In this document: one piece after another, positions 17,026 through 51,200 of the stretch | Layout of the letters: the number at the start of each line of letters is the position of its first letter | How positions within the stretch are numbered: the stretch's first letter is position 1 | Assembly: GCF_030028105.1 (NCBI RefSeq) | Contig: NC_092397.1 | Span: 21,772,630 to 21,836,629 of the forward strand | DNA length: 64,000 nucleotides | Source of the DNA: Mobula birostris | Taxonomy: Eukaryota | Reading direction: 5' to 3' | Position numbers and translations under genes: made by a program | The notes under the pieces: model-generated | Databases searched by the model: none | What the model saw: only the letters and a program-made list of their open reading frames with translations | Told to the model about the DNA's origin: nothing

Positions 17026-18721
17026 CAGTAACAACACTTCTCTGTTTCTCCGCACCAACACCCCAGCAGTAAATGTCAATGGACCATTCACCTCTGAACC
17101 TTGGTCATATATAGTTTTATGAACCACTCACTGCACCCGTCTCTATTTTGTTGTGTAGTTCAGCACCTTGACCCCTCTCTATTTCTCTCGTTTACAATTT
17201 ATCTCCACATAAATCACAGTCTGACTTTTGATTCCTCCTACCATTCTACATGCCATCATACTTCACCACATTAAACTCCATTTACCAAGTATTCTACTCA
17301 CCAGCTTCTTCTTATCCTGTTGGAGAGATGAAATGTCCAATCACAACATGTCCTTCACCACATTCCCTGTCATTGACCTCCTTCCTCTGGGTCATTAATA
17401 TCAATAACAAATCATTGTCGATCCAGAACTGGTCACTGAGAAACTCCACTAGTAATATCATCCCAGTCTGAAACAGACCTGTTATTCTGTCTCAGTATGA
17501 TGACCAGTCTTCAGTCAGTATTAACACACTTCCTTCCCAGTACTGAGCTCTGGTCTTGTGCACCAGCCTTACATGTGGCACCTTGGCAAATGGCTCCCGA
17601 AAATCCAAAAACACCACTTCTCCAACTTCTCCTGTAAAGTCTCAAATCTCTGGTATGTTTGTCAAACATGCCTAAACATTCAACAACCCAGTTTACAGGG
17701 TCCAAGACCAGGTTCCAGATGGACAGGGTGGTGAAGAGGCTTTTGGAACACTGGCCTTCAGTCAGGGCACCGAATATAGAAGCTGGGATGAAATGTTGCA
17801 GTTGTCCAACACGTTGGTTTGGCCGCATTTCGCAAATAGTGTTTAGTTTCAGTGACCCTGCTGTCTGACAGACACCATTAAGCTGGGAAGAGAGCAGAGG
17901 AGATTTACGAGGATGTTGCTGGATCTTGAAGGACTGATTTGTGGAAAGCATTTTGGTCAATTTTCCCTGGAATGTTGGAGAATGAGTAATGATATTGCAG
18001 AGGTGTATAAAATTATAAGGGGCCTGAGTTGGGTCAGAGATAACAATCATTTTGCCAGTGTTGGGGAATCAAGAACTGGAGGGCATTGGTTTAAGATGAG
18101 CTTTAATAGGAACCTGAAGGGCAACTTTTCCAGTTGGTGGTGGTGAGGGGGTTACAGACCACGAGCTCAGATGGAAACGTTGGTCATCGTGGACAATTTG
18201 AACTGAAGGTCTTGTTTCTGTGCTGTGTGAATCTGACTGTAAACCCTGTTGACTTAGTTCAATGACATTGAACTTTTCGAAATGATTTGCTATTTCTTGA
18301 TAGATTATCAACTGCAGTACCTGAAGTGAAGTTAACAGGACTACAGTTACCTTCCACCCTTCTTCAACAATGGTTTTCAACTAACTGGGACCTTTCTGTA
18401 ACAGTGAGTTTTGACAGACTTCAATGTCTCTCCTTTCTCTCCAGACTTTAGTGCAGGTCGTTGGGACCTGGTAATGTCTGCTTTTAGTCCCATTAGTTTC
18501 TCCCTGGAGACGGCGGTTGTTACACATTATGGCACAATATTGAAATGTCACCATCAGATATCTGTGGGATGTTTTCTGTGTCCCCACTGTGAACACTAAC
18601 TCCTTGTTGGTCTGATGGTCTGATGTTCAGTGCAGACTGGCAATCCTGCGACACCGCTGGTGCTTGACTCCATCGGTCTCCGCTGTTGCTCTGGAATCAT
18701 CAGCTCCTGCATGGGCGACTG

Positions 18722-20211
18722 CTTGCTTCACGTATCGTACGTCCCCGACTTGCTTTACGTATCGTACGTCCCCGACTTGCTTTACGTATCGTACGTCCCC
18801 GACTTGCTTTACGTTTCGTACGTCACCGACTTGCTTTACGTATCGTACGTCCCCGACTTGCTTTACGTATCGTACGTCCCCGACTTGCTTTACGTTTCGT
18901 ACGTCCCCGACTTGCTTTACGTTTCGTACGTCCCCGACTTGCTTTACGTATCGTACGTCCCCGACTTGCTTTACGTTTCGTACGTCGCCGACTTGCTTTA
19001 CGTATCGTACGTCCCCGACTTGCTTTACGTTTCGTACGTCCCCGACTTGCTTTACGTTTCGTACGTCCCCGACTTGCTTTACGTATCGTACGTCCCCGAC
19101 TTGCTTTACGTTTCGTACGTCGCCGACTTGCTTTACGTTTCGTACGTCCCCGACTTGCTTTACGTTTCGTACGTCCCCGACTTGCTTTACGTATCGTACG
19201 TCCCCGACTTGCTTTACGTTTCGTACGTCCCCGACTTGCTTTACGTATCGTACGTCCCCGACTTGCTTTACGTATCGTACGTCCCCGACTTGCTTTACGT
19301 TTCGTACGTCCCCGACTTGCTTTACGTATCGTACGTCCCCGACTTGCTTTACGTTTCGTACGTCCCCGACTTGCTTTACGTTTCGTACGTCCCCGACTTG
19401 CTTTACGTATCGTACTTCCCCGACTTGCTTTACGTTTCGTACGTCCCCGACTTGCTTTACGTTTCGTACGTCCCCGACTTGCTTTACGTTTCGTACGTCC
19501 CCGACTTGCTTTACGTATCGTACGTCCCCGACTTGCTTTACGTTTCGTACGTCCCCGACTTGCTTTACGTATCGTACGTCCCCGACTTGCTTTACGTTTC
19601 GTACGTCCCCGACTTGCTTTACGTATCGTACGTCCCCGACTTGCTTTACGTATCGTACGTCCCCGACTTGCTTTACGTTTCGTACGTCCCCGACTTGCTT
19701 TACGTATCGTACGTCCCCGACTTGCTTTACGTCTCGTACGTCCCCGACTTGCTTTACGTATCGTACGTCCCCGACTTGCTTTACGTTTCGTACGTCCCCG
19801 ACTTGCTTCACGTATCGTACGTCCCCGACTTGCTTTACGTATCGTACGTCCCCGACTTGCTTTACGTATCGTACGTCCCCGACTTGCTTTACGTTTCGTA
19901 CGTCCCCGACTTGCTTTACGTATCGTACGTCCCCGACTTGCTTTACGTTTCGTACGTCCCCGACTTGCTTTACGTTTCGTACGTCCCCGACTTGCTTTAC
20001 GTATCGTACGTCCCCGACTTGCTTTACGTTTCGTACGTCCCCGACTTGCTTTACGTATCGTACGTCCCCGACTTGCTTTACGTATCGTACGTCCCCGACT
20101 TGCTTTACGTTTCGTACGTCGCCGACTTGCTTTACGTTTCGTACGTCCCCGACTTGCTTTACGTTTCGTACGTCCCTGACTTGCTTTACGTTTCGTACTT
20201 CCCCGACTTGC
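18722..20211. repeat. Minisatellite, ~55 x 27 bp, consensus CTTGCTTTACGT(A/T)TCGTACGTCCCCGA
   Basis: Directly visible. The span is 1490 bp (55 units plus 5 nt), with a 9-aa periodicity in five reading frames. Confidence 0.98.
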
Positions 20212-20290
20212 ATATCGACTTCCACAGCTAGGGCGCAATATCCATGGTCGACCCTGACCAGCGGAGAGCCATCACCAACATGCTTGCATG

Positions 20291-20640
20291 TGGCCTCCTC
20301 TACTGCTACGACGAAGCCAAATACAGGTTAGCCAAACAACACCTCATATTCTGACTGTGCAGCCTCCAATCTTGATAGAATGAACATTGATTTCTACCAA
20401 TTCCGGATATCACTGCACTCTGTTTCCCTCACCCCCACTTCTTTTCACCCATTCTGATACCATTTAACCCCTTCACCTCTCTTCACACACCCTCATGACC
20501 TGCCCATCAACTCTGTCTGGTTCTCCACCTCCTTCGTGTCATCCCATGGTCCAAAGTTCTCTCCTATTGGATTTCATCGCTTTGCCTTTTCTGCCTGTCA
20601 CCCAGCTCCTCAGATCATCATCCCTCCACAAACCACACGT
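20291..20640 (+). mobile_element. Penelope-like element 3' remnant (end of GIY-YIG region plus pyrimidine-rich tail)
   Basis: GGCCTCCTCTACTGC...CAACACCTCATATTC...AGCCTCCAA...ATGAACATTGATTTC, reading QHLIF.L.SLQ...MNIDF, typical of Penelope GIY-YIG C-termini. Confidence 0.65.
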
Positions 20641-20649
20641 TCCCTAAGG

Positions 20650-21012
20650 ATGAGCTGTACTTAATGCAATCTGCAAGAGGACTGAGACTTCAGAAAAGAT
20701 TTGTTTTCCAGCAAGACAATGACTGCGAGCTTAAAACCAAAGCTGCACAGGAATGCCTTAAGACAGCACAGTTCATGTCCTGGTGTGGCCAAGTCAGAGT
20801 CCAGACCTCAGTCTGTGGCTGGACTTGAAAAGGGCTGTTCACTCATAAACTCTGTGCATTCTGACAGACCTTGAGCAGTTTTGTAAGGAAGAATGGGAAA
20901 AATTGCAGTGTCCAGATGTGCAAAGCTGATAGTGACCTATCCACATAGACTCATGGTTGTAATTGCTGCCAACGGTCCATCGACTAAATACTGACTTGAA
21001 GGAGGTGAATAC
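20650..21012 (+). mobile_element. Tc1 transposase 3' fragment
   Basis: FQQDND and WPSQSPDL motifs. Mirror of 46855-47215. Confidence 0.75.
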
Positions 21013-22565: not shown

Positions 22566-24385
22566 TAGTCTCTGTCATCACCTCACAAACCTCGAGCAAC
22601 TTTGTCAAGCATGATCTGCCCACACAAAACCATGCTGATTGTCCCTAAGCAGGCCATGCCTTTGCAAATGTGCATAAATCCTGTACCTCAATATTTAACT
22701 CTGACCTGGTGGTCTTTAAACAACTCCCACATGTGTCTGCTCCCAATCAATGCCCCTTGGCTTCTGTCTTACTACGTCCTAACTTGCCCTCCTGCAATTT
22801 AGTACCTTCTTACAAGATCTAATTTTATTCTTACTCATAACTAAGAAAAATATAAGATCCCAAAATTTTCACTGAGTCTTGGCTGTCTCCTGGTCTGGTT
22901 CATTTCCCAAAACTAATTCCCACATGTTCTCAACTCTGGTTGGGCTCGACATAATGTTTCAAACTTTCCTCAGATTCACTGAAGAAATCTTGCGCTTCTT
23001 AGTATTGAGCAAATTCCAGTCAATTCTAGGGAACATAAAGTCCCCCCACTGGTTATTGTGGGGCCAGTGCAAACATCCCAACAGTGTAACTGCAGATTGC
23101 CTCTGTAACTGAACCTTCCAGTTTGCAGTGACATTCCCAGTGGGGTAACCTCTGCATCTTTAAACCCCCCCCTCCCACCCCCACTCACATGTAAAACAAT
23201 CAAACCCAGGAATGTTGAGCTGCCAGCCCTGTCCGTCCGACAACATAAAACTCCTAATGTTGAAATAAACTCATTTCAGCCCAGCAATCCCACCATGTTT
23301 ATTAGCCTGACATTGGCGCTCGTTCTTTTCAGACTGTCTTGTCAGACATACATTCTCCCACTTGCTACTCCAGTTCAAACTCTGCCAAGTGACACCATCA
23401 AACCTCCTGGTGAAGATATTGGTTCCGGTCCGGTTCAAATGCAAATGGTCTTGTTTGTCCCGGTCTCCCAGCTGCCTGGACCACCCATGAATCCATGAAT
23501 CTGAAAACCTCCCTCCTGCATCAGTTCCTCAGCAACATATTAAACTGCGCGAAATATCGATTTCTCACCACACTAGCGCATGGTTTTGGTCACAATTCCG
23601 CGATTACAATCCTGGAAGTCCTGCTTTTTTTTAACCTAGTTCTCTAAAACCACTGTGTAGGACTTAACATCGATGCTCGTTTAAACCCTTCCGTGTAGCA
23701 CGAAGAAGGCTCCCCGGAAACATATTGGCTCCCCTCCTCCTTGGACCCGTCTCTCGTTTCCCTTGAGACCCAAAGATCCTTGTACCTGAAGAACCACCCA
23801 CCTCGCACCAGCTCCTCAGCCACCCCTTTACCTGGGCTTTAGAAGGCGCCAGAAGCGCGGTCTATATATCTGGTTATGTATCCTGTTCTTGTATGTGACC
23901 AGTCTTTCATTTCCCTGACGACCCAGAGGAACAATTGTTCTAATGAATCAACCCCCTCATCACTGGAAGTGACTGCACCCTCGCCCACCAACTGCTGTGT
24001 GTGAGGGCGCTGACACTGGTCATGGGGCCGGGAGGGACAGACCGAGGTCCTCGGGGATTTGTAGAATGGAAAAGCACTTCCTTTAATTTAAAGCAGGAGA
24101 ATCGGCAAATTCCCAGAAAACCCCTAGTATGTACGTGGTGTGTGAGGGAGTTTTGTTTTTCGCTGGAGCGCTTTGTGTCGGATGAATCGTTGGAAATTGG
24201 CGGGTGTGGTAAAGTGAAGGCGGAGCTGGACGATGAGAGGCCGCTCTCGGCTCTGTCCGTCACTCTGACTCTGTCTCCTCCCCTCCCCGCCTCTGTCTCT
24301 CTGCGCGTTTCTCGGGCAGGTCGGGGCGCTGTGTATAAAAGGAGACAGCAGCAAGCAGTTTGTCAGTGAGCAGCGACTTGAGTGA

Positions 24386-24706
<321 letters not shown>

Positions 24707-24739
24707 AAAACTCCCACTTCCTCCCGAGCACGAAACAAA

Positions 24740-24755
24740 GGCTCTTCTAAGAGCC
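24740..24755 (+). terminator. Histone mRNA 3' stem-loop (H4)
   Basis: AAA-GGCTCTTCTAAGAGCC-ACCCA. Confidence 0.95.
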
Positions 24756-25377
24756 ACCCACCGCCTCACAGACGGAGCCGTATCCACAGACTTTTAATTA
24801 TTTTTTATCGATACGTCCAGTTCAGTTGCATTTGAAACAGATTGATCGATTCCGCTTGAAACATACTGCAATTTTGCCTTTCCAGTCAGTGATTACCGCA
24901 AAACCTGCATTAGGATCGATTTTAATCCTCTATCAGTTTCGAACAGAAATCAGTTCACTCGTTTAGAGAACGATTCTGCAGTTGTGAATTTAAATCTTAA
25001 CTGAGGAAATTAGATATTAAATTTATTAAACGAAACTGAATTTGTATAATTCGTCATACAATTAATTGTAAATAAAATGTAATCAAGCACCGTTGCTGGA
25101 TGGTCTTCAATTGCCAGGCGATTTTAAATTAATCCGGCGCCAATCACGCTGCATGAATGAAGTCCGACCGCTCGGCAAATTTTTATTTGTCGTAAATTTT
25201 TATTTGCCGCCAGCCTACAGGAAATGAATCAACCAATCGCAGTAAGGAACCTTAATAGACACCTGGTTCAGCCAATCAGAGGTGATGGGCAGACCCTTTC
25301 CAAAAGTATAAAATCCTGTCCCGAAGCACGTTTCGTCTATCTTGTTCCTGTATTTCAGCCCGTGTTGTCGGTTCTGA

Positions 25378-25794
<417 letters not shown>

Positions 25795-25823
25795 ACCCAG
25801 CCTCCACAACAAGCACAAGAAAA

Positions 25824-25839
25824 GGCTCTTTTAAGAGCC
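25824..25839 (+). terminator. Histone mRNA 3' stem-loop (H3)
   Basis: GGCTCTTTTAAGAGCC followed by purine-rich AAAGGAAAGGG downstream element. Confidence 0.95.
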
Positions 25840-26646
25840 ACTACCACAGCAAAGGAAAGGGCTGTCGCTTGCTGATTATTGTAGTGACGATCTGCCTTCC
25901 TGATGGGGTTGTTCGGTTTCGCATTAACTGACCGCAATCATCAGCTGTTCTGTGCCGACAGGTTAATTCAGCAAGAGACAGGAGATGAACGCGCTCCCTC
26001 CCTGTCAGGGTCTCATCTGGCCCTTCACTTCTCCCACAAACCTGGCATGTACAGCTGCTGCGGCTGTTACCGTTTTGTTTTCTTTCGACATGCCCGGCTG
26101 TCCTTGGAGTGGGAGCATGCGGTCGCGATGGGTACAGTGGGAGATTTCCGAGAGCGGTAATTATATATTTTTGATTTTATTCTTGTAAATGTTGTGTAAA
26201 TAAACTTTTGTAGCTGGTACCTGATTGAAGGTCAGTCGGCAAAGTCGCCGGGAAGGTTATCATATATCTTCCCCCTGCAGTCCATCCCCAGAGACAGATC
26301 CCTCTCTCAAGACGCCCCCTCCCCTCTCACATTGGTTTCAGCAGTTCCCAATCAACTCAGCTGAATCGGGCCTTGGGATGCGAGGTGCGGAATCTCAGTC
26401 ACGCTGTCCTGGAGCGGGAGAAGGAACTGGGCCTGCAGACCACCCCACCGGTCTCACTCTCTCTCACACACACACAACCCGAGTGAAACGCAGCGTTTCA
26501 CTTCAAATCTGGGACGTCAGGGCCGCTCTGAATGTCAGAGGTACCGGGAAAATCGGGTTTTATGCGATAAGTTCCCCCGCAAAACTCAGTCGGACCCGGC
26601 GCGGGAATCACAATATTCACGATCAGCTCTTTTCTGAGATGTGGGT

Positions 26647-26662
26647 GGCTCTGAGAAGAGCC
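26647..26662 (-). terminator. Histone mRNA 3' stem-loop (H1)
   Basis: Minus strand GGCTCTTCTCAGAGCC-ACCCA, downstream element GAAAAGAGCTG. Confidence 0.95.
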
Positions 26663-26698
26663 GTTGGGTTCAAACACTTACAAACGGTATACCTTAAT

Positions 26699-27319
26699 TC
26701 ACTTTTTGACTGCTGTCTTCTTGGCCGCCTTCTTCTTCGGGGCTGCGAGTTTCTTGGGGCTCTTTGGCTTCGACGCCGCTGGTTTCTTAGCTGCCGCTTT
26801 TTTAGCCGCTGGTTTCTTAGCTGCCGTTTTTTTAGCCGCTGGTTTCTTAGCTGCCGCTTTTTTAGCCGCTGGTTTCTTAGCTGCCGCTTTCTTAGCCGCT
26901 GGGTTCTTGGCGCCAGACTTCTTGCTTGGAGATTTCTTGATGGCAGATTTCTTTACCGATGGTTTGTTCGCTTTCTTCACCGCTTTCACGGCACTTTTTC
27001 CTTGACCGGATTTAAAGGATCCCGAAAGACCCGCGCCCTTGGTCTGAACCAAGGAGCCGCTTTCCACTCTCTTCCTGATGCACATCCTGATCTGGGCGCG
27101 ACGTTTCCCCACATCGACACCGCTGCTGGTCAGAGCCTTCATGATGGCCACAGCGGACATTCCCTTCCGATCGCGACAATCCGCCACAATCTTATCGATT
27201 TGTTCGCCCAGCTTGGGACCGGCTGGTTTGCTCCGGCCGGCCGCCTTCTTCTTGGGAGTCTTCTTTGCGGCGGCGGGTGCGGCTGGAGGAGCCGTTTCGG
27301 CGGGTGCTGTCTCGGTCAT
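26699..27319 (-). CDS. H1: Linker histone H1 (divergent globular domain)
   Basis: MTETAPA N-terminus, LVQTKGAGLSGSFK globular-domain end, K/A/P-rich tail with 30-bp repeats, 3' stem-loop. Confidence 0.95.
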   Translation of the reverse strand: MTETAPAETAPPAAPAAAKKTPKKKAAGRSKPAGPKLGEQIDKIVADCRDRKGMSAVAIMKALTSSGVDVGKRRAQIRMCIRKRVESGSLVQTKGAGLSGSFKSGQGKSAVKAVKKANKPSVKKSAIKKSPSKKSGAKNPAAKKAAAKKPAAKKAAAKKPAAKKTAAKKPAAKKAAAKKPAASKPKSPKKLAAPKKKAAKKTAVKK

Positions 27320-27389
27320 GTCGGCGACTCTGGAAAATGCTTCTCACAATCAGACTGAATGAGAACTGAAGCGAAAGGCGGCGGCCCAG

Positions 27390-27470
27390 AGCAATTTAAA
27401 GACAGCGAGCGGACGGGGCGGAGACATCCTGCTGTCAGCTCCCGGCGACTTCATTTTTCTGTGTTTCTCT
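27390..27470 (-). promoter_or_regulatory. H1 promoter: AAACACA H1 box, GC box, TATA-like TTTAAA
   Basis: TGTGTTT at 27460-27466 (AAACACA on minus), GGGCGG at ~27416, TTTAAA at ~27395. Confidence 0.7.
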
Positions 27471-27867
27471 CTCCTCAAAAACTCTCCGATTCCAATTAAA
27501 ATCGGACACTCCAGAGACCCAGACTGGTCCTTGTCCGTCACTGAGGCCGCAAAGTTCGCCGGAAAGAGAGTTTAATCGGGATTAAAGGCAGCACTTTCTA
27601 TTTTAACCCGTTTGATTACTGCACTGCCCGCGATCTCTCTCCATTTTGTTGACCTGTTCTCTGCTTTTCGGCTGAAATTTTGAAACTAACTAAAACTTTG
27701 CGATTAATTCCCGCTTCGGGACTGAGCTGGGGAGTGGGGCGATCCCATAACAGAGAAATCTTTTCTTTTTGTACAGGAGGCGCTGGGAAATCCGGCGATG
27801 TGTTCGGACCCACAAACACAGTGATACTCGTCTAATCGCCCGCCGCTTTAAAACACTCTCTCTGAAT

Positions 27868-27985
27868 CAGCAAGTCAGGCAGCATCAATGGTGAGAATAA
27901 ACAGTGGACATTTCGGGCCGAGTCCCTTCATCAGGACTCTGGTGGGAGATGCTGCCTGACTTGCTGGGTTCCTCCAGCATTTTGG
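27868..27985 (-). mobile_element. Penelope-derived fold-back element with a hammerhead motif (27903-27938)
   Basis: Arms GCAAGTCAGGCAGCATC / GATGCTGCCTGACTTGC. Minus strand AGTC-CTGATGA-AGGGACTCGGCCC-GAAA-TGTC. Confidence 0.7.
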
Positions 27986-30938
27986 CCGCGTTGTTCGCCA
28001 TTCCCAGAATCTCTTGGCGTTATGCTGACACAATGTTCACATCTGCACCTTCAGAGGCCTGTACTGCTGTCAGAACAAAACGACAGGTTCCTCGTCATAT
28101 AACACGGTGATAAATCTGATTCTGATTCCAAGGAATAAAGGACAAAGGACATTGTCTGACCAAACTGACTATGTAACTGAGAACCTCGGGTCCGGGAAAT
28201 ATACCTTGGAAATCTTTTCCACACTTTCCCCAGTTTAACCACGTTTCCTATAATGGTGACAAGAGCTGTATACAAATCGGCAAGTGTGTCCTCCAGTCAT
28301 TTACACAACTGTGACATAATGTCACAACTGATATACTCTATCCCCTGACTAATGAAGACCAGCATGTTAAACCCCGTTCTTCACCACCCTGTCTGCAAGT
28401 GACACAACTTTCAATGAACTGTGTTCACTTTACCCCTAAATCTCTCCGGCCCATTCCAGTCCCCAATGACCGATCTTTCATAGTGTAAGTTCTACACTGG
28501 TTTGACTTTCCAATATGCACCGCCTCACACTTATCTGTATTGAAATGCATTTGCCACACTTGACCCTCTTCCCTAAGTGATCATGAGCACCCTGTAATCC
28601 GCGACATCCTTCCAAGTTAAGTTGAGGGAAGTTTCTCCAACTCATTAATAAAACTTTTGTGCACTGGCATTGATCAGTGAAGGTCAGTGAAACCTTGTCC
28701 ATTCTTGCCTCTTTTACTCTTCATATATCTGAAAATAAATCTTTTTGTATCTTGTTTCTATTATTGGCCAGTTACTTTCATAATTCATCTGAGTTCTGCA
28801 TATTGTTATTATAGTTGTTCTGTTTTTTTGTTTTAAGTTTCCCATTCCTTTAGCTTCCCATTAATTTTGGTGATATTCTTTGCCCTCTCATGTTCTTTTA
28901 TGCTGCCTTTGTCTTCTGTTGTTAGCGATGGTTGCCTCATCCTCCCTTTTAAATACTGTTTCTGCTGAGGGATGAACCAATCCTGTGTCTGCCAAATTTC
29001 TCCTGGAGACTGAAACTTTTCACACAAGGTAATCTGGGAAAGTTGAAATGCCCAACTGCTGTAAACTTGTTCCCATTACCCCTCTGTGTGATTTACTAAT
29101 ATGTCTGCTGCACAATATCTGAGCCGATTGGGAGGCCGGCAGTATAATCCCATCAAAATCATCAGTCATCATTTTATTTAAAACCTATACTTACAAGACC
29201 TCATCAAAACCCCTCTTATTACTGAAGTGTTGGTCTCCTTATTCAAAGATGCAACATCCCCCACCCATAAGGTAGCTTTTAAATGTTTCCCCTTCATCTT
29301 AAACCATTACCCTGTAAATTTAGGCTTCCCTACCCTACAAAAAGAGTGCTCACCTATTGATTTTGTAAACCTCTGGACGGTCACCAGACAGCTCCTTACA
29401 CTCTCAGGAGAGAGAAAGAGAGTCCCAGTCTGTCCAGCTTCTGCTGATAATTAAAGTCCACCAGTGTCAGTAGCATTCTCATCAAACTTCCCTCCACACT
29501 TGCCAGCTTCATGACATCTTTCCTGCAACTGGATGACCAGAACTGTGCAAAATACAGTCTGGTCTCACTTTGACTTTTACAGCTGTCATACGGCATCCCA
29601 AATTCTCTACTCAGTTCCCTGATCAATGAAGACAAATAGGCCAAACACCACCTTCACCATCCTGACTACCTGTGTTGTCTCTTTCAGTGAATGATGTTTC
29701 TGTATTTCATGGACCCTCTTCTGTAATACTCTCCAAGGGACAAGAATTTACTGTGCAGATCCTTCCCTGGTTGAACTTCTCATAATGCAACACCTCAAAC
29801 TTGTCCACATCAATATCCTTCTGCCATTTTTTGGCCGTCTTCCCCAGTTAATCTCCATCCTATTGTACTCTCACACAATCTTCACAGTCCACACTACCAC
29901 CAGCATTGCTGTCATCTGCAAACTCACTGTCACCACAATGTCAGAAAATTGTTAATGTAGATGACAATTGACAGTACCAGCACCGATCCCTGTGACTGTC
30001 ACTGGTCAGAGGCCTCCAACCTGAATAACAAGCTGCCATGACCACCCTCTGCCTCCTTCCATCAAGACAAGTATCTTGTCTGGCATCCCCTCTGCTCCAA
30101 ATGTGTAATACAAAAGAAATAAGGATTAAATCAAAATATATCTACCTATGGCCTACATCTCTCAGAAGAGACAAAACCTGAACTCCCCACTCCAATTCTG
30201 GCCCACTCATACAATGACCGCTCTGGTTAAGTATAACTTTTTATTGGATCTTGCCACGTTCCGAATTATGGGCAATCAAACATTTCCTCGGGAACTGTGA
30301 CATGCAAAATGTGCCAACTGCCCAGGTTCACTTCATCAAACTCCCTCTCCTTTTATATAATCTGATGACTGTGTGGAACTGTGGCACTCAAAACTGTGGA
30401 CTGCAGGAAACCAGAGTACATGCCTGCACTGTTCTACAAGGCCACAAATGATTAAAAAAACACTGTATAACAAACACTGGAATTCCCCAACTGAGATGAA
30501 TGGGGAGGCTGGATAACTGAAAAGATTCAAAGAGAAGGAAGATAAATGTTTGTAAAATCAGGGAAGTGGGATTGACATACAAGGAAGGCTGATGGCAGAT
30601 CAGACTTTATATGGAATTGTGGGTGAGGGACTAAGAGAGGACACACTGGAGGGTTCATCCAGTGGGACAATGTGGATAGAGCTCAGGATAAGAGAGGTGC
30701 ATTCACTGATGGGGTTATACCACAGGCCTCCCAAATGCCGGCAGGAGATAAAGGAACAGAAATGTAGCAGGTAATGAAAGATGTAAAAGCAACAGGGTAG
30801 TTGCAGTGGGTGACTAATTTCCCCAATGTTGACTGGGACTCCCTTAGAGTCAGGGGCTTAGATATCACCGAATATGTTAGAAGAATACTGGGATGTTACT
30901 TAACATAGAAGTGGATAGTCTAACCCGGGAAGGGAGCC

Positions 30939-31570
30939 ATAGAAACATAGAAAATAGGTGCAGGAGTAGGCCATTCGGCCCTTTGAGCCTGTACCACCAT
31001 TTATTATGATCATGGCTGATCATCCAACTCAGAACCCCGCCCCAGTCTTCCCTCCATACCCCCTGACCCCCGTAGCCACAAGGGCCATATCTAACTCCCT
31101 CTTAAATATAGCCAGTGAACTGGCCTCAACTGTTTCCTGTGGCAGAGAATTCCACAGATTCACCACTCTCTGTGTGAAGAAGTTTTTCCTAATCTCGGTC
31201 CTAAAAGGCTTCCCCTCTATCCTCAAACTGAGGCCCCTCGTTCTGGACTTCCCCAACATCGGGAACAATCTTCCTGCATCTAGCCTGTCCAATCCCTTTA
31301 GGATCTTATACGTTTCAATCAGATCCCCCCTCAATCTTCTAAATTCCAACGAGTACAAGCCCAGTTCATCCAGTCTTTCTTCATATGAAAGTCCTGCCAT
31401 CCCAGGAATCAATCTGGTGAACCTTCTTTGTACTCCCTCTATGGCAAGGATGTCTTTCCTCAGATTAGGGGACCAAAACTGCACACAATACTCCAGGTGT
31501 GGTCTCACCAAGGCCTTGTACAACTGCAGTAGTACCTCCCTGCTCCTGTACTCGAATCCTCTCGCTATAA
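30939..31570 (-). mobile_element. Young 5'-truncated CR1 copy nested in an older CR1
   Basis: Uninterrupted RT C-terminus in ORF 31029-31586 (LVRPHLEYCVQFW...NFFTQRVVNLWNSLP), TTTCTATG tail, CATAGAAA at both junctions. Confidence 0.92.
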
Positions 31571-32639
31571 ATGTCATAGAAAACATTGTATTGGGAAATG
31601 AGCCTGGCCATTGATAGAAGTTTCATTTTGGGAACAGTAAATAAGGACAAGACTGGACCTGGTGGTAATATGGTCATTTGGGGTACAGTTAATTGCAACT
31701 GTCTACATTGAACATGTAAATGATGTTTAAAAGCAATCGGGTCAGAATTCAGACAGAACTGTTTCTATGAGGAGGAAACACAAGGATGGTAAAGTCTGGC
31801 AGAGGGTCATAGTGAGAGATGTTATGAATTCAGACTGAAAGAAAATGAAGGATAAGGAATATTTCAGAAGTAGAAATTGGAGAAAGCCTCTGGCAACATG
31901 AAACAAGTAAGAGAGAAGTTAGAGAGAGAATCAGAAGTGTGAAACGGGAAGAAGAAATAACTTTGGTGAGAAGGGGCACTGCGAAGAGGGTACGACAACA
32001 CAAGCACAGAGGAGAGAGTTTATGTCTGAAGTGTGCGAAGGACTAAACCTGTACTTCTCATCAGTATTCATCAATGTGGTCATGGAGGATAGTGAGATCA
32101 GAGAAGGGAATGTTGATATTCCAGGGCATGTTGTTCCTCAGGCAATGGAGACAAATTACAGATTGGTGAGTCTTGGATCAATGTTCGGGAAATTATTCGA
32201 GAATATTATTAGAGATAGGATCTCTAATAAAAGTTTGGAGGGTAAAAGGAGGATATCATGATTCAGAAGGCAAAGTGAGCAAAATCCAAGAGATTCTCTT
32301 GGTATATTCATAGGAAAAGTTAAGTTAGACACAGAATCGTTCCCCTTGGAGGTGAACATGGCCATCTGTGTGTGGAGGCAAATGAAATAGGAGAGGCTAT
32401 CCATGAATATTTCTGACAGTTATTCCACCATTGCAAAAATTCTTTAAGGTTGTTAAATCTCCAGGGCTTTATCAGGTACATTCTCGTACTTTGTGGGAAG
32501 CTGGAGAATACACTGTGGAGGCCAGGGGAGAGATTATTTTGCTTCATCTCAGGCACCAGTTGAGGTTGCACATGATTGGACAGGGTGAGCAATGTGGAAT
32601 TGATAGTTTTGAGGCCCAGACTGTGAATGATATGAAGAG

Positions 32640-33500
32640 GCAGGCTGTGTTGAGGAAGCAGGGAGTCTGCAGTAGCACTTGACAGATTTAGAGAATGGAC
32701 AAGGAAGTGCCAGATGAAATATAGTGTAATGAAGTGTGTGGTCATGTACTCTGGTAGGAGGAATAACACCCTAGGCTCTTTCTAATCAGGGAGAGAACAG
32801 AAATCAGTTGTGTGAAGGGTCTTAGTGCACGATTCCCTAAAGGTTAATGCACACATTGAGTTGGTAGTGAGGAAGGCAAATGTAATACTTGCATGCATTT
32901 CAAGAGAACTAGAAAATAAAAACAAGGATCTAATGCTGAGGCTTTGGTCAGACCTTATTTGGAGTATCATGAGCAGGCTTGGGTAACTTTTCTAAGAAAG
33001 GATGTGCTGGCATTGCAGAGGCTGTAGTGGAAATTCATGAGAATGATCCCAGGACTGAAAGAGTTAGGATGTAATAATCATTTGATAATCTGGGCCTGCA
33101 GTCACTGGAGTCTAGAAGAATGAGGGAGAATCTTATAGAAACACATTGAATATTGAACGGCCTAGATAGCGTTGATGTGAGAGGATGTTTCCAATAATGG
33201 AGGAATCTAGAACCAAACCACACCCTCAATAAAAGATGCCCCTCTAGAATAGAGATGAGTAATTTCTTTAGTCAGAAGGTGATGAATCAATGGATTTCAT
33301 TTCCACAGGCAGCCATAAAGGCAGTCAGTGTTTTTTTTTAAAGCAGAGGTTAGTAGATTTTTAATTATTATTAAGGGTATCAAAGTTTATGGGTAGAAGG
33401 CAGGAGAATGGGGTTGAGATGGATATATGATGGAATGGCAGAACAGACTGAATGGGCCAAAAGGCCTAATCCTGCTCCTGTGACTTCAGGACTGATGGTT
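32640..33500 (+). mobile_element. CR1 3' fragment (decayed)
   Basis: Same family as 21620-22565; ends GGGCCAAAAGGCCTAATCCTGCTCCT. Confidence 0.7.
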
Positions 33501-36500
33501 TATGCGCTGCCATTGTTCAAAAAGGGTAGTGGAAACTACAGGCCCATCAGTCTGTAATTTGTTGGAAGAGTTTCTGATGAACAGGATCCACCAAAATTTG
33601 GTTTGATTCAAGACAGTCAGCACAGTTTTGTGCAAGGAAAATTATGTCTGGTAATTTCTTGCAGCCCTTTGAGGGGTTTCACAAGGGCGTAGATGAGGTT
33701 AGGGCTGTGGATGTTGTTTATATGGACATTAGCCAAGCCTTTGATTATAGTCTGGAAGGTTAGATCTAGAAACTGGAATCTGGGGAGATAGTTGATCGAT
33801 TCCATAATTGCCTCCGTGACAGGAGGCAGAGGCTGATGGTTGAGGGTTGTGTCTCAGACTGGAGCTGTCTGTCTAGTGGTGTGCCACTGGGTGACAGGAC
33901 CTTTGTTGTTTGTAATTTATATAAATAATGTCCATCTGAATGTGTAATTCACTGAAAGTGACGTCTCAGCTAGATACGGTGGTGAAGATGGGGTTTGATC
34001 TGCTGGCCTTCATCATTCATGTCACTGAGTACAAGAGTTGAGAAGAAGTGTTGCAGATACACAAGTCTTCGGTGAGGACTGATTAAAGGAAACCATGCTG
34101 ACTTTGGCCTATTTTTTCATGTGTTGCCAAGTACCCGAAAATACATCCTTGACAATTGACTCCATCATCTTCCCAACCACTGAGATCGGACTAGCTGGCC
34201 TATGATTTGCTTTCTTCTGCTTCTCTCTCTTTAAGAGTGGATGACCTTTGCAATTTTCCTGTTCTCTGGAACCACACCAGAATCCAGAGATTATGGAAAG
34301 ATTATTACTAAAACTGCCACAATCTCTTCAGCCACATCTTTCATAGAACTGGTGTAGATAATCTGGTCCAAGGGAATTTTCTACCTTCAGACCTTTCAGT
34401 TTCCCAAGGACCATCTCCCTAGTAAAGGCAAAATCACTCATTTCTGCCCCGTTTCTCTTGAATTTCCAGCAGACTGCTAATATCGTCCCCAGTGAAGACT
34501 GATGCACAATACTTATTCAGATTGTCTGCCATTTTCCTGTACCCCATTACTACCTCTCCAGTAACATCTTCCAATGAACTAATATCTACTTTTGCCTCTC
34601 TTTTACACTTTGTATATCTGAAGAAACTTTTGGTATCCTCTTTAATACCAGTGGCTAGCTTACCTTTGTATTCCAACTTTTCCCTCTCTTCATGAGTTTT
34701 TTTGTTGCTTTTTGTTGGTTTTAAAAGTTGTAAATACTCTGAGAGTCAGGGACATCTCGGAGCAGATACAGAACAGGGGGATGGTGTTCATTCAGCCAGA
34801 GATGGTGATTCACATCGGTACCAATGGACAGGTAGAAAAGGGATGATGTCCCACAGAGAGTTAGGGAAGAAGTTATGGAGCAGAACCTGAAATGTTGTAA
34901 TCTCCAGTTTACTCCTAGTGCCCTGTGGTGGTAGGGATACAAACAGAAAGTGAGAGCTAATGAATGTGTGGCTAAGGAGCTGATACAGGGACAGGGTTTC
35001 AGGATTACGGAACATTGGAACCTCTTCTGGTGCTGGGGTGACATTTACAAGAGGGATGGTTTGCAGTTTCAGTGGAGGGCGGTCAGGATCATGAAGTTCA
35101 TTGCTGCACCCTATGAGGGTTGAAACGAGATTGACAGGGGGATGTGAAACAGAACACTAGTCACTGAATGGAGAGATTGAAGCTAAGTTAGATGCCAGGC
35201 ACAGCAATATGTAATGATGGATTTTGAGTCAAATCCACATCTGACCTGGAGTTTGTTTAAAGATCAGTGCAGTGTTTCAGGGCCAGTTTGTTCCAGTAAG
35301 AGGGAGGGTCAAGAATGGCAAGGTTCAGGAACCTTGGATGATGAGACAGGAAGTTAATTTAATCGAGGAGGAGGAAGAAGCATAAGTAAGGCTTAGGAAG
35401 CTAGAATCAAACAGGGTGTTTGAGGACTATATTTAAAAAATAGGGGAACTCAAGAACATTCGGAGAGCTGGAAACAGTGATGAAAAATCTCTGGCAAGTA
35501 GGATTGAAGATAATCCCATTGTATTCCGTACATTCGTTGTGGTGAAAAGGATACCTAGGGCTGCACTTTGGGAGATCCAACATCAAGGGTGTGTACACAG
35601 TTAATGGCAGGAACATTAACAGTATTGACAAAGAGAAGGATGTCGAGGTTCAGAGACATCGGTTCCCTAAAACTGGGAGCACAGGTTGACAGGGAGGTGA
35701 AGTCGGTGTATGGCATGTTTACCTTCATCAGGCAAGGCATTGAGTTCAAGCACCAGGACATGATGTTACAGGTTTATAAAATGCTGGTTAGGCCACATTG
35801 AGAGTATCGTGTTCAGTTCTGATCACCTCATTATAGGAAGCATGTGGAGGGTTTGGAGCAGGATGTCTGGAGGAGGTGTGCGCTGAGGAGAGGCTCGACA
35901 TGCTGAAACTTTTTGCTTCTGGAGTGGCGTTGGCTCAGGAGAGATTTGATAGAAACCTGTGGAATTTTGTGGTCATAGTTGGTGTAGACAGCCAGTAATA
36001 TTTTTCACAGAAGGCATGTATTTAAGCTCAGAGGAAGAAAGTGAAGAAAACAGATTGATGGAGACATGGAATGCACTGCCAGGGGTGGTGGCAGAGACAG
36101 AGAGCACAGGAGTATTTAAGGAAATCTTAGACAGTCACAAGTATATGTAGAGAAGGGCCAAAGGGCCACTCCTGTACTGTCCTTTGTTCTGTGAACAGCA
36201 GATGGCCCCTGGGCATGGATCCGTGCAGGAGACTGGGATATTATATCCCCAACAGAAAAATGATTGTCGGAGGGGCAGGACCGGCAGCTCAGTTTCACAG
36301 TACAAATGCTACAGGTACGATGGAGTGGACGGGAGAGAAGAGAATGCAGAGATGTGTTTGACCAGGGAGAACATCTCAGTGGTACTTAAAGAAGACATCC
36401 CTGGGGATTGCTGCATCATGTATACTGGGACCGCCGCACTGCAAAAGGGTTGGTGGCGCAGAATTTATTCTGTGTGTCCAGTTTTATCAATCAGTATTTA

Positions 36501-36584
36501 GAAGTTCCTACTAGAGACAGGACAGAACTGAACCTCCTTGTCGATCCACCCACCCCCTCCCTTTTCTTCCTGGCACAAACAAAA

Positions 36585-36630
36585 GTCTGTATCAGAGCGA
36601 CCCACCGCCTCACAGAGGGAGCCGTGTCTC
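36585..36630 (+). pseudogene. Orphan H4 3'-end remnant (degenerate stem-loop and downstream element)
   Basis: AAACAAAAGTCTGTATCAGAGCGACCCACCGCCTCACAGAGGGAGCCGTGTC resembles the H4 3' flank at 24733-24784. No coding sequence upstream. Confidence 0.7.
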
Positions 36631-37053
36631 GGGAGATCTGACTAAACTGACCCTTTCTTTGCAAATGTTCATCAGAACTCGTTCTGCACTACCCAGTGTT
36701 CGTTTTGGGTAACACCGTGGACAGGGACCTGTCGCCGATCTGGTGAGTTGCCGCTGCGGATAATTCCGCAGGAAGGAAATCTAAAATACAAAATGGACCA
36801 ACTACAGCGGCAGTATTCGGTCATTCGGCCCGTCGTATCTGCTAGAAAAGCAGATGGAATGAGGAAAACAAACAGTTGATAATATGAAACGTTTATGTAA
36901 TGAAACAGGACAGCAGGAGACCGAAGGTCAAATGGACCAGGTGAAAGATAAATTTACTGCAGCAGCATCATAAACACATAGTATCCACGATACAGTGCTC
37001 ACAAGAACTAAACTGCTGTACAGAATTGTAAAAAGAGAAGAGAATTAGCAGTT

Positions 37054-37110
37054 AGTCCTGACGAAGGGTCTCGGCCCAAAATGTCGACTGTACCTCTTTC
37101 CCAGAGAGAT
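37054..37110 (+). mobile_element. Penelope-derived hammerhead motif with mutated core
   Basis: AGTC-CTGACGA-AGGGTCTCGGCCC-AAAA-TGTC-GACT, with GAAA changed to AAAA. Confidence 0.65.
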
Positions 37111-37496
37111 GGGAATTGCTCATGAAGCGATCAGTGGGACGGTCCAGGGTCAACCCGCAATGTGAAACCCAGACAACGCGGTTTCAGGTCATGAAGACCG
37201 GAATCGTTCAATGATCGGAGATTAAATTCACCCTCCGGGGGCTGACTCTGAAAGTTAATTTCCCCGCCCCACAAGGGGAGAGAGCTCCATTCAGCCAGCA
37301 GAGAGGGGAAATGAGGCAGGGTGTAGCGGACCGCGTACTCTGCAGACTTTTACCGATTTAATTCGCGGAAGAAACACGACGGAAGGAGAGAAAACGTTAC
37401 CAGGGATGCCTCCGATCGGGGCCGTGTCAGATACACAGCCGAGTTACTCCGAACGGTAATCACCCGCTGTTCAGCCCTTCCACAGACACTGTGAGT

Positions 37497-37512
37497 GGCT
37501 CTGAAAAGAGCC
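37497..37512 (-). terminator. Histone mRNA 3' stem-loop (H2A)
   Basis: Minus strand AAA-GGCTCTTTTCAGAGCC-AC. Confidence 0.95.
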
Positions 37513-37542
37513 TTTGGGTAAATAGGTTCAGTTTACGTCGCT

Positions 37543-38049
<507 letters not shown>

Positions 38050-38731
38050 TCATTGGTGAAAAGAAATGGCCCAATCGACGAACTGCCTTAATCACCAATC
38101 AAGAGCCCGTAAAGGCAGAAGCGCGGAGTGTAACCATCTCCTCCCCAAAGTACTCTGAAAATTGGAAAAAGCCCGCCAAAAAAAACTCATTGTTCAAATT
38201 TAATCTGAAATTAAATCATTGCTGATCTGTTTGAGGACTGGGTCTTCGTATTTCCCCCTGTTATTGAAACCGGGCACATTTAATGTAAGTGTAGTTGATA
38301 ATGGAGTGTCTGGGAACTCAAATTTCTTTCAACTCGTAAAGGAACCGAGTAAAACTGACACTCAGCTTCTGCCCGGTGCTGGTCATTGTGTAAACGTTAG
38401 CAGGTTATGGACAAACGGCTCTTCTCAAACTGTGACCAGCGGCTAGTCTGCAATTTTTTTAAAAAAACTGTTCTATGAAAGAACCGTGAAGTCGTTCCGG
38501 CCTCGAATTAAAATGAGATTCAGAGAAGTTACCTAACTCCAAATAATAAACTCCTGAACCCACAGCTAAAACAGCAACGGGAGTGGGAGGAATGTTAAAC
38601 ACCAGGATTATAGGGGGAAGATGAAGCGGATATTCCAACCGCTCTTTAGCTCCTGTAAAAGCCACCACACATAAAACGTGCGCCATGTATTGCCTAAATG
38701 CTAGTACAACTCTCTCAGTGAAATCGTGAGT

Positions 38732-38747: not shown

Positions 38748-38778
38748 GTTGTGTTTTCGATCATCTCACTGGGGAACT

Positions 38779-39153
38779 TTACTTGGAGCTGGTGTACTTG
38801 GTCACCGCCTTTGTCCCTTCGGAAACGGCGTGCTTGGCCAGCTCCCCGGGCAGCAGCAGGCGCACGGCGGTCTGGATCTCCCGTGAGGTGATGGTTGACC
38901 GCTTGTTGTAATGGGCCAGGCGTGAAGCCTCGCCCCCGATGCGCTCGAAGATGTCGTTGACGAATGAGTTCATGATGCTCATGGCCTTGGAGGAGATGCC
39001 AGTATCGGGGTGAACCTGCTTCATCACTTTGTAGATGTAGATGGAGTAACTCTCCTTCCTCGACCTCTTGCGCTTCTTGCCAGTCTTGCTCGCTGGTTTG
39101 GACAAAGCTTTCTTGGCGCCCTTCTTGGGAGCGGGTTTCGCTGGATCCGGCAT
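38779..39153 (-). CDS. H2B: Histone H2B
   Basis: MPDPAK...[26 protein letters not shown]...VTKYTSSK. Upstream TATTTAA, octamer-like ATTAACAT (~39231-39238) and CCAAT boxes. Confidence 0.99.
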
Positions 39154-43921: not shown

Positions 43922-44242
<321 letters not shown>

Positions 44243-46734: not shown

Positions 46735-48220
46735 TTGTTTTGCAATGGATTTAATTTGGCTTTTTTGACACTGATCAACAGAAAAGACTATGGTGTCAAA
46801 GTGAAAACAGGTCTAAATTAATTGTAAATATGGAACAAAATAATTCATTGCCTTAGTATTTACCTCCTTCAAAGCCTTAATTAGTTGATGCACCTTTGGC
46901 AGTATTTACAGTTGAGTCTGTGTCGATAGGTGTCTATCAGCTTTGCACATCTGAACACTGCAATTTTTCCCCATTCTTCTTTACAAAACTGCAGAAGCTC
47001 TGTCAGAATGCATGGGTTAGTGAGCGAACACTTCTTTTCAAGTCCAGCCACAAATTCTCAATTGGATTGAGGTCTGAACTCTCACAAAGCCACTCCAGGA
47101 CATTAACTTTGTTGTTTTAAGGCATTCCTTTGCAGCTTTGGTTTTATGCTTGTGGTCATTGTCATGCTGGAAAATTAATTTTCTCCTAAGTCGCAGTTCT
47201 CTTGAAGACTGAATTTGGTTTTCCTCCAGGATTTCCCTGTATTTTGCTGCATTCATTTTACCCTCTACCTTTATGTGCCTTTCAGGGCCTGCTGCAGTGA
47301 AGCATACCCACAGGATGATGCAGCCTCCACCATACTTCACGGTAGGGATGGTATGTTTTTGATGTTGTGCGGTGTTTGGCTTACTCCAAACTTAGTGTTT
47401 GTGATGGTCAAAAGGTTCAATTTTGTTTTCATCAGACCATAGAATCTTCTTCCAACTAACTTCAGAGTCCCCAACAATTCTGGGAAACTCCAGGGAAGAT
47501 TTCATCAGAGCATTTTTCAACACTGGCTTTTTCTCTGCCACTCTCCCGTAAAGCTGCGACTGGTGAAACACCCGGGCAACAGTTGATGTATGCACAATCT
47601 CTCCCACCACTGAAGCTTGTAACTCCTCTAGAGTTATCATAGGTCTCTTGGTGGCCTCCCCCACTGGCCCCTTCTTGCATGGCCATTCAGTTTTTGAGGA
47701 TAGTCTGCTCTTGGTAGATTTACAGCTGTGCCATATACTTCCCACTTCTGGATGAGTGACTTAACTGTACTCCAAGGGCATTCAGTGACTTGGAAATGTT
47801 CTTGTATCCATCTCCTGGCTTGTGTTTGTCAATTACCTGTTTGCAGAGCAGCTCAGAGTGTTGATTTGTCTTCACGGTGTAGTTTCTCCCAGGATACTGA
47901 CTCACCAGCAGTTCGACCTTCCACTTACAGGTGTACTATTACTACAATCAATTGAAACACCTTGACTGCACACGGTGATCCCCATTTAACTGATCATGCA
48001 ACATCGAAAACTAGTTGGCTGCACCAATGATGATTCGGTGTGTCAGTGTCATATTAAAGGGGGTGAATAATTAAACAGACAATTATTTTGTGTTTTAGAT
48101 TTGTAATTAGTTTAGAGCATTTTGTAGAGATTTGTTTTCCCTTTGACACAAAAGAGTCTTTTTCCATTGATTGGTTTCAAAAAAAGCCAAATTCAATCCA
48201 CTGAGATTCAATGCTGTAAA
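46735..48220 (-). mobile_element. Near-full-length inactive Tc1/mariner transposon with long terminal inverted repeats
   Basis: Frameshifted transposase: GDGYKNISKSL, WSDENKIEPF, KYGGGCIILWVCF, FQHDNDHKH. Inverted ends at ~46740-46872 and ~48055-48205. Confidence 0.88.
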
Positions 48221-51200
48221 TTTTCATAGGAACTTTATATGTAGGGACAATGATGGTGAAAGGGGGAGGGAAAGACAACATTGGTAGGAGCGGCCTCAAG
48301 ATCCTGGGGTGTGGTCGAAGGCATTCAAGGAAATATTAAATCAAAGAACATACAAAGAGGCGCTGGTGGTGCACAAGAGAATCAGAGATTTTCTAGGAAC
48401 CAGTGAAAAGCTAAAAGTAAAAAGGAACACGCAGAGAAGTTAACTCAATAATTTGCATTAGTGCTCACAGTGGGTCACAGCAAACATCGCACAGATATCT
48501 AACGGTGACATTTCAACATTGTGCCATAATGTATAACAATTGGCATCACAAGGGAGAAACTAATGGGACTAAAAGCAAACTTTACCAGGTCCCAACGACC
48601 TGCACTGGAGGGTTTCACAGGAAGTCTGTAGAGAAAGTAGAGACATTGAAGTTTGTCAAAACTCACTGTTACAGAAAGGTCCCAGTGGAGTTGAAAACCA
48701 TTGCTGAAGAAGGGTGGAAGATAAAAAGCAGGTAACTGTAGTCCTGTTAACTTCACTTCAGGTACTGGAGTTGATAATCTATCAAGAAATAACAAATCAT
48801 TTGGAAAAGTTCAATGTCTACAGTCAGGTTCACACAGATTCCACGATGACCAAAGTTCCCATCTGAGCTTGTGGTCTGTAACCCCCTCACCACCACATTA
48901 TGAAGAAGGTTATCCTCCTCCTTGTCCCATTTCTCTGCATTTGGCCCAGATACTTCAAAACCTTTTCTTTCCATCTATCTGTCCAAGTGCCTTTTTAATG
49001 TCCCTGACTCAACCATTCCCCCTAGCAGCTCATTCCATTTCCAGCCTCCAGGTCCCTCATGATTTTATACACCTCTGCAATATCAGCACTCATTCTCCAA
49101 CATTACAGGGAAAATTATCCAAAACACCTTTCCACAAATCCTTTGAGATCCAGTAACATCCCCATAAATCTCCTCTGTGCTCTTTCCAGCTGAATGGTGT
49201 CTGTCATACAGCAGGGTCACAGAAACTAAACACTATTTGCAAAATGTGGCTAAACCAACGTGTTGGACAACTGCAACATCTCATCCCAGCTTCTATATTC
49301 GGGGCCCTGAGTGAAGGCCAGTGTTCCAAAAGCCTCTTCACCACCCTGTCCATCTGGAACCTGGTCTTGGACCCTGTAACCTGGGTTGTTGAATGTTAAG
49401 TCATGTTTGACAAACACACCAGAGATTTAAGACTTTACAGGGGAAGTTGGAGAAGTGGTGTTTTTGGATTTTCAGGAGCCATTTGCCAAGGTGCCACAAG
49501 TAAGGCTGGTGCACAAGACCAGAGCTCAGTACTGGGAAGGAAGTGTGTTAATACTGACTGAAGACTGGTCATCATACTGAGACAGAATAACAGGTCTGTT
49601 TCAGACTGGGATGATATAACTCGTGGAGTGTCCCAGCGACCAGTTCTGGATTGTCAATGATTTATTATTGATATTAATGACCCGGAGGAGCGGCAGAGAG
49701 TGAGGAATCCACGGTGGCAATGACAGTGAATGTGGTGGGGGACATGTTGTGATTGGACATTTCATCTCTTCAATGGGACATGGGAAGCTGGTGAGCAGAA
49801 TACATGGTAAACGGAGTTTAATGTGGTGAAGTGTGAAGGCATGTCGAGTGGTAGGAGGAATCAAAAGTCAAACTATTATTTATGTGGAGATAAATTATAA
49901 ATGAGAGAAATAGAGAGGGGTCGAGGTGCTGAACTACACAACAAAATAGAGACAGGAGCAGTGAGTGGTTCATAAAGCCATATATGACCAAGGTTTAGAG
50001 CTGAATGGTCCATTGACATTTACTGCTGGGGTGTTGGTGCAGAGAAACAGAGAAGTGTTGTTACTGTGACAGACAAGTGCACAATGATGGATTTTGGGAA
50101 GTTAAAGCAGGTCAGGACATACCCAGTGAATGGAGGGTCCTGAGGAGTGTTGATGAAAGAGAAACCTGGGGCACAGGTACCTTACTCCCTGAAAGTGCCA
50201 ACACAGGCAGACAAGGTGGTGAAGAAGGAGCACAACATGCTTGTCTTCATCGGCAAAGGCTCTGAGAGGAGTTGGGACATCACATTACAGTTGTACAAAT
50301 CAATAATGACACCACACCAGGAGTACCCTGTGCAGTTCTGGTTACATGAGAGGAAGGATGTGATTAAGCTGGAAAGGTGCAGAAACAATTCACAGGAATG
50401 TTACCTGCTCTGGGGGCTTGAGTTACAAGGAAATATCAGACTGACTGGGACTGTTTTCCCTGGAGTGAAGGAGACTGAGGGGGAGACCTGACAGAAGATT
50501 ATAGAACTATGAGAGGTGTAAACAAGGTAAACAGGCAAGATCATTTTGCCAGGGTAGAAATATCAAATATGAGAAGGCGCAGCTTTAAAATGCCAAGGTG
50601 AGAATTTAAAGGTGGACATTAGGACAGGTAAGATTTCTGTTTCTGTACAGAGAGTGGTGAGGGCCGGGTATGGGCTGCCATGGGGAGTGGTGGAAGCAGA
50701 TATGATAATGACATTTAACAGGGTTTTAGATAACCAAATGAATATTCAGAGAATTGAAGCACATGAATTATAAGCAGGCAGAAGAGACTTAGTTTCATTT
50801 GGCATCGTGTTCAGCACAGACATCATGGGAAGAAGGGTCTGTTCCTGTGCTGTACTGTTCTGTGTTCTCGGTGAGCCTCAGTGACAGGGGAGTCTTTAGC
50901 CGGGGTCACAGACAAGTGTATCTGTGGCAAGGAGAGAGACTGCACGATGGTGCATTGCCTCCCTGGTACCAGGGCCAAGGATGGAATTGAACAAGTACAG
51001 GCCATTCTGAAAGGGCAGGGTGAGCAGCCAGAGGTCGTGGTCCATATTGACACCAACAAAAGAGAAAAGTCCTGCAAGGAGAACTCAGGGAGTTGGGGAA
51101 AAAGTTAAGTGGAAACTCTGTGGTCGGGGGGGGGGGGTGGAAATCCCAGTGCCACCTGCTAGCGAGGGAAGAAATAAAAGTGTGATACAGTTATATGTGT

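Follow-up and report, generated by a model that had tools for sequence, protein, structure and literature searches.

A CpG-dense 27-bp minisatellite upstream of histone genes probably derived from a dispersed repeat and spread with duplicated histone blocks

Results

A tandem array in one arm of a histone locus

The window, that is, the whole 64-kb stretch of DNA analysed here from the 4.0-Gb genome of Mobula birostris, contains genes for H4, H3, H1, H2A, H2B and a second H4 within a large, old inverted duplication. The array under study ends 4184 bp before the ATG of the first H4, and ~3 kb of CpG-poor DNA lie between it and the H4 island. Positions are those of the window:

24395..24706, plus strand: histone H4, its ATG 4184 bp past the array end, at the start of the CpG island region
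25384..25794, plus strand: histone H3
26699..27319, minus strand: linker histone H1
37543..37926, minus strand: histone H2A
38779..39153, minus strand: histone H2B
43922..44233, minus strand: second H4, its coding DNA identical to that of the first (312/312), without upstream array or host repeat
47215..48458, unstranded: mirror position of the array, without host repeat or unit; other decayed transposon DNA, which we take to be Tc1-like

The two H4 copies (24138-24805 and 43823-44490) are 99% identical over 668 bp as against 78–92% for the arms, which suggests gene conversion limited to the gene. An extra partial copy (~90%) of the H4 upstream region adjoins the second H4 at 43219-43429.

Structure of the array

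18722..20211, plus strand: 27-bp minisatellite of 55 units, closed by a CTTGC that corresponds to the source element's second direct repeat (TRF and unit parse)
18857..19126, plus strand: adjacent duplicated five-unit block, units 6-10 equal to units 11-15, with the rare 23G marker (P = 0.01 against shuffled order)

TRF returned a period of 27 with 55.2 copies and 96% matches (score 2728), and parsing of the units placed 55 full 27-nt units at 18722-20206, followed by the terminal CTTGC up to 20211; the array is thus built of head-to-tail units within the 10–100 bp range of minisatellites. The original prediction had described about 55 units with A (~26), T (~28) or a single C at one position, about 220 CpGs with one CpG>TpG change near 20177, CpG-poor surroundings and recurrent rare variants, and all of this was borne out. 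At unit position 13, 26 units carry A, 28 carry T and one carries C; the 1.5-kb array (GC 52%) holds 220 CpGs at an o/e of 2.4 with a single CpG>TpG, at 20177, and the CpG o/e of the adjoining repeat DNA (14–18 kb and 21–23 kb of the window) is 0.14–0.32 per kb; the variants 23G, 20T and 8C occur three, two and two times. A 23A variant in unit 4 had escaped that first list. Block duplication, proposed from the rare variants, was recovered for units 6-10 and 11-15, but 8C, 20T and 23G are themselves old variants, common to 11, 22 and 5, respectively, of the 24 related arrays described below.

The order of A and T along the array was compatible with random in a runs test (34 runs against 28 expected, P = 0.07), and a longest-repeated-block test was not significant (P = 0.23); on these two results we reject a non-random A/T code. 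The T state had been expected to break both a hairpin and a palindrome. It does abolish TACGTA, but a 4-bp ACGT stem is kept (−2.3 versus −2.7 kcal/mol), and with a difference of only 0.4 kcal/mol per unit the A/T site was rejected as a hairpin switch. As to the restriction enzymes suggested for mapping variant order, BsiWI is indeed predicted to cut nearly all units (53/55), while SnaBI, thought to cut the A units only, has predicted sites in 24/26 of them.

Two ATG-started frames run through the array, one of 506 aa on the plus strand (18711-20231) and one of 528 aa on the minus strand (18627-20213). That either is a genuine coding sequence, the plus frame specifying DLLYVSYVP repeats, is highly improbable. 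Although the unit length is a multiple of three, the plus frame runs through the array without a stop or frameshift in 22/24 copies and the two commonest variants (positions 13 and 25) are synonymous in it, the unit alone is open in five of six frames, synonymous variant types show no clear excess (9/27 versus 20/81 possible), the ATG belongs to the source repeat, and the product would range from 29 to over 600 aa. No Pfam family was matched at cut-off, the minus frame giving two low-complexity matches below it. Synonymous counts and Pfam thus gave no signal for a coding array, and both long frames are probably a by-product of the 27-nt period.

The unit within a dispersed repeat

18624..18721, plus strand: host dispersed repeat 5′ of the array, a 5′-truncated copy of a ~600-bp repeat
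20212..20270, plus strand: host dispersed repeat, 3′ end
20271..20644, plus strand: decayed repeat joined to the host at a junction that paralogs with an array and those with a single unit have in common; presumably a Penelope-like (GIY-YIG) 3′ tail

RTE-like is another label that, we presume, may apply to repeat DNA at the locus. Four copies of the host repeat gave no Rfam match, and a 26-aa peptide of the downstream remnant (20271..20644) gave no Pfam match. A motif from the 3′ flank of the host repeat has 134 exact matches over many contigs, and the 30 copies fetched share ~600 bp. In 23 of these the 27-nt stretch aligns ungapped and occurs once, and their majority sequence contains one CpG; the other seven were too truncated or diverged to enter the unit alignment. 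At both ends the source stretch is bounded by (G)CTTGC direct repeats, 27 nt apart. An older paralog family on the window's contig, comprising at least 40 copies with ~82% identity, shares the downstream junction, and all 30 of its members that were read have a single unit at the site. The unit thus shows homology, in place, to part of a dispersed repeat and has bounding direct repeats, both being features of transposon-derived minisatellites; judged by these alignments, it derives from one 27-nt stretch of the ~600-bp repeat. A source stretch between CTTGC repeats is the configuration of the Haber-Louis model, in which the unit is bounded by a short (5–6 bp) direct repeat (PMC3389668, PMC6947457). 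The single-unit family, a second set of segmental duplications, occupies 13.7–42.2 Mb of the contig; 10/40 members lie ~10.6 kb upstream of an oppositely oriented H4, whereas around three others ~25 kb are free of histone genes.

The array is present in one arm only, as had been noted at the outset, but the reason lies in the host: it is absent at the mirror because the host insertion as a whole is present in one arm and absent from the other. The arms are 78–92% identical around the array, 18600-20660 has no counterpart, and neither array flank matches anything within 43001-56000 of the window. We reject arm-specific growth of the array at two equal sites, since the host repeat was never present in the mirror arm.

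Sister arrays and duplication of the histone block

Flank searches, with the best 40 matches scored in each, identified 18 close and six more distant array loci, which lie on the window's contig. These 24 arrays hold 681 units, exactly 354 of which match the unit pattern; genome-wide, the pattern has 354 exact matches, all of them inside the 24 arrays on this one contig, so no exact unit lies elsewhere in the genome. Unit number, nearly always giving exact multiples of 27, ranges from 2 to 175 (median 17) between these paralogs of one assembly, the variability expected of a minisatellite. Each array has its own variant order, adjacent duplicated blocks of 5, 8 and 9 units occur among them, and none of the 24 copies, which were identified by flank search, has lost its array completely.

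By flank, the closest relative of the window (99.5% identity) carries a quite different array of 37 units. Together with the 2–175-unit range, this supports the hypervariable VNTR that the original prediction had offered as one option. Fully intact units make up 95% of the window's array and 30% of this relative's, so the former was probably renewed recently. Its presence in both the close and the distant block families makes the locus older than their split. The two families differ at 33–47 of ~975 and 20–27 of ~421 flank bases; by this comparison the array locus predates a flank divergence of 3–6% and is not itself young. The earlier description of the array as young therefore fits the units but not the locus, which is also seen in other organisms.

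An assembly artefact has a negligible probability: although unit numbers may be wrong in any assembly, we reject this explanation on the distinct variant orders at 24 loci and on contigs of other organisms that hold units or unit-to-unit junctions. At a two-unit paralog, one short contig of organism C spans both units, and contigs of organisms D and E have an additional unit ahead of the first. For organism B, contig depth reaches ~5,500 at the unit versus ~100 on the 5′ flank, a depth not to be read as copy number; contigs of organism A, possibly the same source as the assembly, pile up likewise.

All 24 arrays lie 2.3–6.9 kb upstream of H4-H3-H1, so that copies do track histone clusters, a check raised with the original prediction, and they do so because array and histone block were co-duplicated. 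Over many kb, array-bearing blocks match the window at 95–99% (18 copies) or ~92% (six copies) identity, in line with duplication of the whole histone block, the array being a likely passenger. Exact H4 starts number 94 genome-wide and 86 on the window's contig, where 23/86 have an array upstream and 63/86 do not; 20 of these 63 were sampled, including both H4s of seven neighbouring pairs, and the 9.5 kb upstream contain neither array nor host repeat in any of them. A histone cis-element would be expected at most histone gene copies, and 23/86 H4 starts fall short of that. Array-less H4 copies keep an H4-proximal region of 95–98% identity, and intact H4 and H3 frames follow arrays as short as 2 and 4 units.

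H4 coding DNA is 98–100% identical across both block families. One array-bearing block has an H4 with a 2-bp deletion (contig ~32.26 Mb) and another a 5′-truncated H4 (~42.65 Mb), both of them probable pseudogenes or assembly errors.

CpG decay within and around the arrays

CpG islands are defined by a length >200 bp, GC >50% and CpG o/e >0.6, and with 1.5 kb, GC 0.52 and CpG o/e 2.4 the array lies within these limits by sequence. The original prediction had offered, as one option, a young or germline-unmethylated array that could act as a CpG-island-like or protein-binding regulatory module upstream of H4. Among the 18 close copies, the ratio of segregating transitions at CpG to those at other C/G positions was 8.0, 9.3 and 11.5 in three flanking stretches, 1.2 in the H4-H3 island, 1.0 in the H1 island and 2.9 in the H3-H1 spacer, and in the 540 bp around the array 7/30 CpG positions were variable versus 8/246 others. 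For the arrays themselves we set six CpG positions against six C/G positions outside CpGs; positions 11 and 25 were excluded, as their decayed states equal the ancestral ones. Transitions were found in 48 versus 4 units, 44 versus 4 runs, 21 versus 4 array incidences and 19 versus 4 haplotypes, the last comparison giving a binomial P of 0.0013 over events that are non-independent (inherited and converted variants). Over the 24 arrays this amounts to a 5–12-fold CpG transition excess, as against 1.0–1.2 in the histone island, and departs from the spectrum of germline-unmethylated DNA. At least one unambiguous CpG transition occurs in 14/24 arrays and none in 10/24, the window's among the latter; 484/681 units keep all four CpGs. 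Judged family-wide from the mutation spectrum, the arrays are probably germline-methylated.

Longer arrays have more intact CpGs (rho 0.66, P = 0.0004 over 24 arrays; rho 0.37, P = 0.13 over the 18 close copies). This trend fits recent expansion and also length-dependent protection, but the 17 CpG transitions in the longest array (175 units) speak against the latter.

Regulation of the neighbouring H4-H3-H1 genes by such a module is accordingly not supported, and we give it little probability. It could draw on the CpG o/e of 2.4 over 1.5 kb, the position of 24/24 arrays 2.3–6.9 kb upstream of H4, three CpGs gained since seeding (see below) and four arrays of 35–70 units without an unambiguous CpG transition. 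Against these stand a family mutation spectrum that resembles methylated DNA, including the 17 transitions of the longest array, the CpG-poor gap of ~3 kb to the island, a ~90-fold range of unit number upstream of intact H4/H3 frames, down to 2–4 units, and the array-less majority of H4 copies with their conserved proximal region; the histone link itself is one of co-duplication. The regulatory reading thus has no positive support, though it keeps a small probability for single long copies.

Conversely, the array might act as a seed of methylation or heterochromatin, like the CpG-rich VNTRs of SVA elements, and damp the histone block next to it, the more so the longer the array. The methylation-type decay of the arrays would agree with this, as would the human blastocyst, where CpG islands that contain a VNTR are reported to resist demethylation when they have more repeats; human CpG-rich VNTR islands are also described as methylated in gametes (PMC4263407). 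The H4-H3 island of array-bearing copies, however, has an unmethylated spectrum (ratio 1.2), so no long-term spreading of methylation reaches the genes, and we regard such a seed as very unlikely.

Proposed history of the array

We favour, with good confidence, a VNTR that arose from a dispersed repeat and was carried to 24 sites by duplication of histone blocks, a likely neutral and probably germline-methylated passenger whose CpGs are likely refreshed by unit turnover. Its starting point would be the 27-nt stretch seen between two CTTGC direct repeats in the source repeat. A first doublet may have formed by slippage or unequal exchange between these repeats in one copy upstream of H4. The block was then duplicated, each copy now having its own unit number and variant order, and slippage, unequal exchange and inter-unit conversion presumably keep adding and removing units. 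Continual turnover of this kind would explain why recently expanded arrays such as the window's show almost no CpG decay. At the A/T site A is the ancestral state and T and C are derived, and unit turnover also shuffles this standing variant.

The path from the seed unit, as found in a single-unit paralog, to the A unit comprises three changes (11A>G, 20T>G and 25T>C), each of which creates a CpG and is weak-to-strong, and 11G and 20G repair both mismatches of the ACGTA-TCG-TACGT stem. Random triple changes give four CpGs in 0.08% of cases (weighted chance 0.0008), are all weak-to-strong in 9.8% and yield an equally stable hairpin in 0.35%, the unit's hairpin being stronger than those of 99.65% of them; all these figures are post hoc, the array having been chosen for its CpG density. 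25C is found in 2/30 single-unit paralogs and in 23/24 last units and may predate the array. In contrast, 20G arose within it, since terminal units mostly keep the ancestral 20T (20/24 arrays). The 10A variant occurs only together with 20T (two units) and mends the same stem mismatch the other way. The flanks show no weak-to-strong excess of the kind that GC-biased conversion would leave (6 weak-to-strong versus 5 strong-to-weak in one lineage, 540 bp). Within the arrays, strong-to-weak variants, mostly singletons, have a mean run of 1.08 versus 1.96 for weak-to-strong ones, but 25T, a strong-to-weak state not counted here, has likewise spread, to 149 units in 77 runs. The three changes could reflect template switching at quasi-palindromes (PMC3820800), GC-biased conversion between units, or chance and ascertainment; pure drift does not readily explain changes that create CpGs and strengthen a hairpin.

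A bolder view, which we consider improbable though less so than the regulatory and seeding readings above, is that hairpin-templated (quasi-palindrome) mutation and GC-biased conversion built a unit whose stem-perfecting, CpG-creating changes let it expand faster, so that in a methylated genome the array would turn CpG-poor transposon DNA into a tract of CpG-island density. Long, fresh copies could on this view stay unmethylated and serve as islands of variable length next to individual histone blocks. If so, the 24 paralogs of 2–175 units, with at least 40 single-unit copies as controls, would offer a natural series in which to study the origin of CpG islands, and if the CpG-creating, hairpin-perfecting changes drive expansion or alter local methylation, a tractable model of a de novo CpG island. 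As an ordinary VNTR, which is the reading we prefer, the array has little importance beyond that of a multilocus marker telling near-identical histone blocks apart; it remains a well-resolved case of how a minisatellite is born, one genome holding the source repeat, the paralogs with a single unit and the 24 expanded copies.

Comparison with known repeats

Human minisatellites such as MS32, in which internal variant repeats give MVR codes, likewise have an interspersed two- or three-state variant position, copies that differ in length and order, and ends that keep older variants; there the variation is allelic, and the variation described here is between paralogs of one assembly. The array is a further example of the transposon-derived multilocus minisatellite, an established class. 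VNTRs derived from Alu, B1 and MaLR are minisatellites or multilocus tandem repeats of transposon origin, and they share with the array a unit within a dispersed repeat, a bounding direct repeat of 5–6 bp, an incomplete terminal unit and occurrence at several loci (PMC3389668, PMC6947457). Unlike these, the array was spread by segmental duplication of histone blocks rather than by transposition or repeated seeding, and its unit gained CpGs after seeding instead of inheriting them. With the CpG-rich VNTRs of SVA and LTR12 and with VNTR CpG islands it has in common a CpG-dense tandem repeat in retro-derived sequence, and such repeats can be gamete-methylated despite their island-like density (PMC4263407). 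The array differs from them in being no structural part of a mobile element, its dispersed copies being single-unit.

In the literature searched, most subscription papers being outside its scope, we found no published description of the array. A megabase region with many histone and tRNA genes is reported in a ray (bioRxiv 10.1101/2025.06.08.657570), in a paper the main text of which does not use the word minisatellite. The window resembles this cluster in gene content, having tRNA-Asp and tRNA-Gly genes at 599-674 and 63811-63882, the CpG-rich ends of the inverted duplication. The two H4s (24395-44233) are 19.8 kb apart in the window, as against ~27–29 kb in most sister blocks, which makes a ~7-kb deletion in the window's copy probable. 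Finally, the H1 tail (26775-26938) consists of 15/30-bp repeats, the length of which apparently varies between paralogous blocks.
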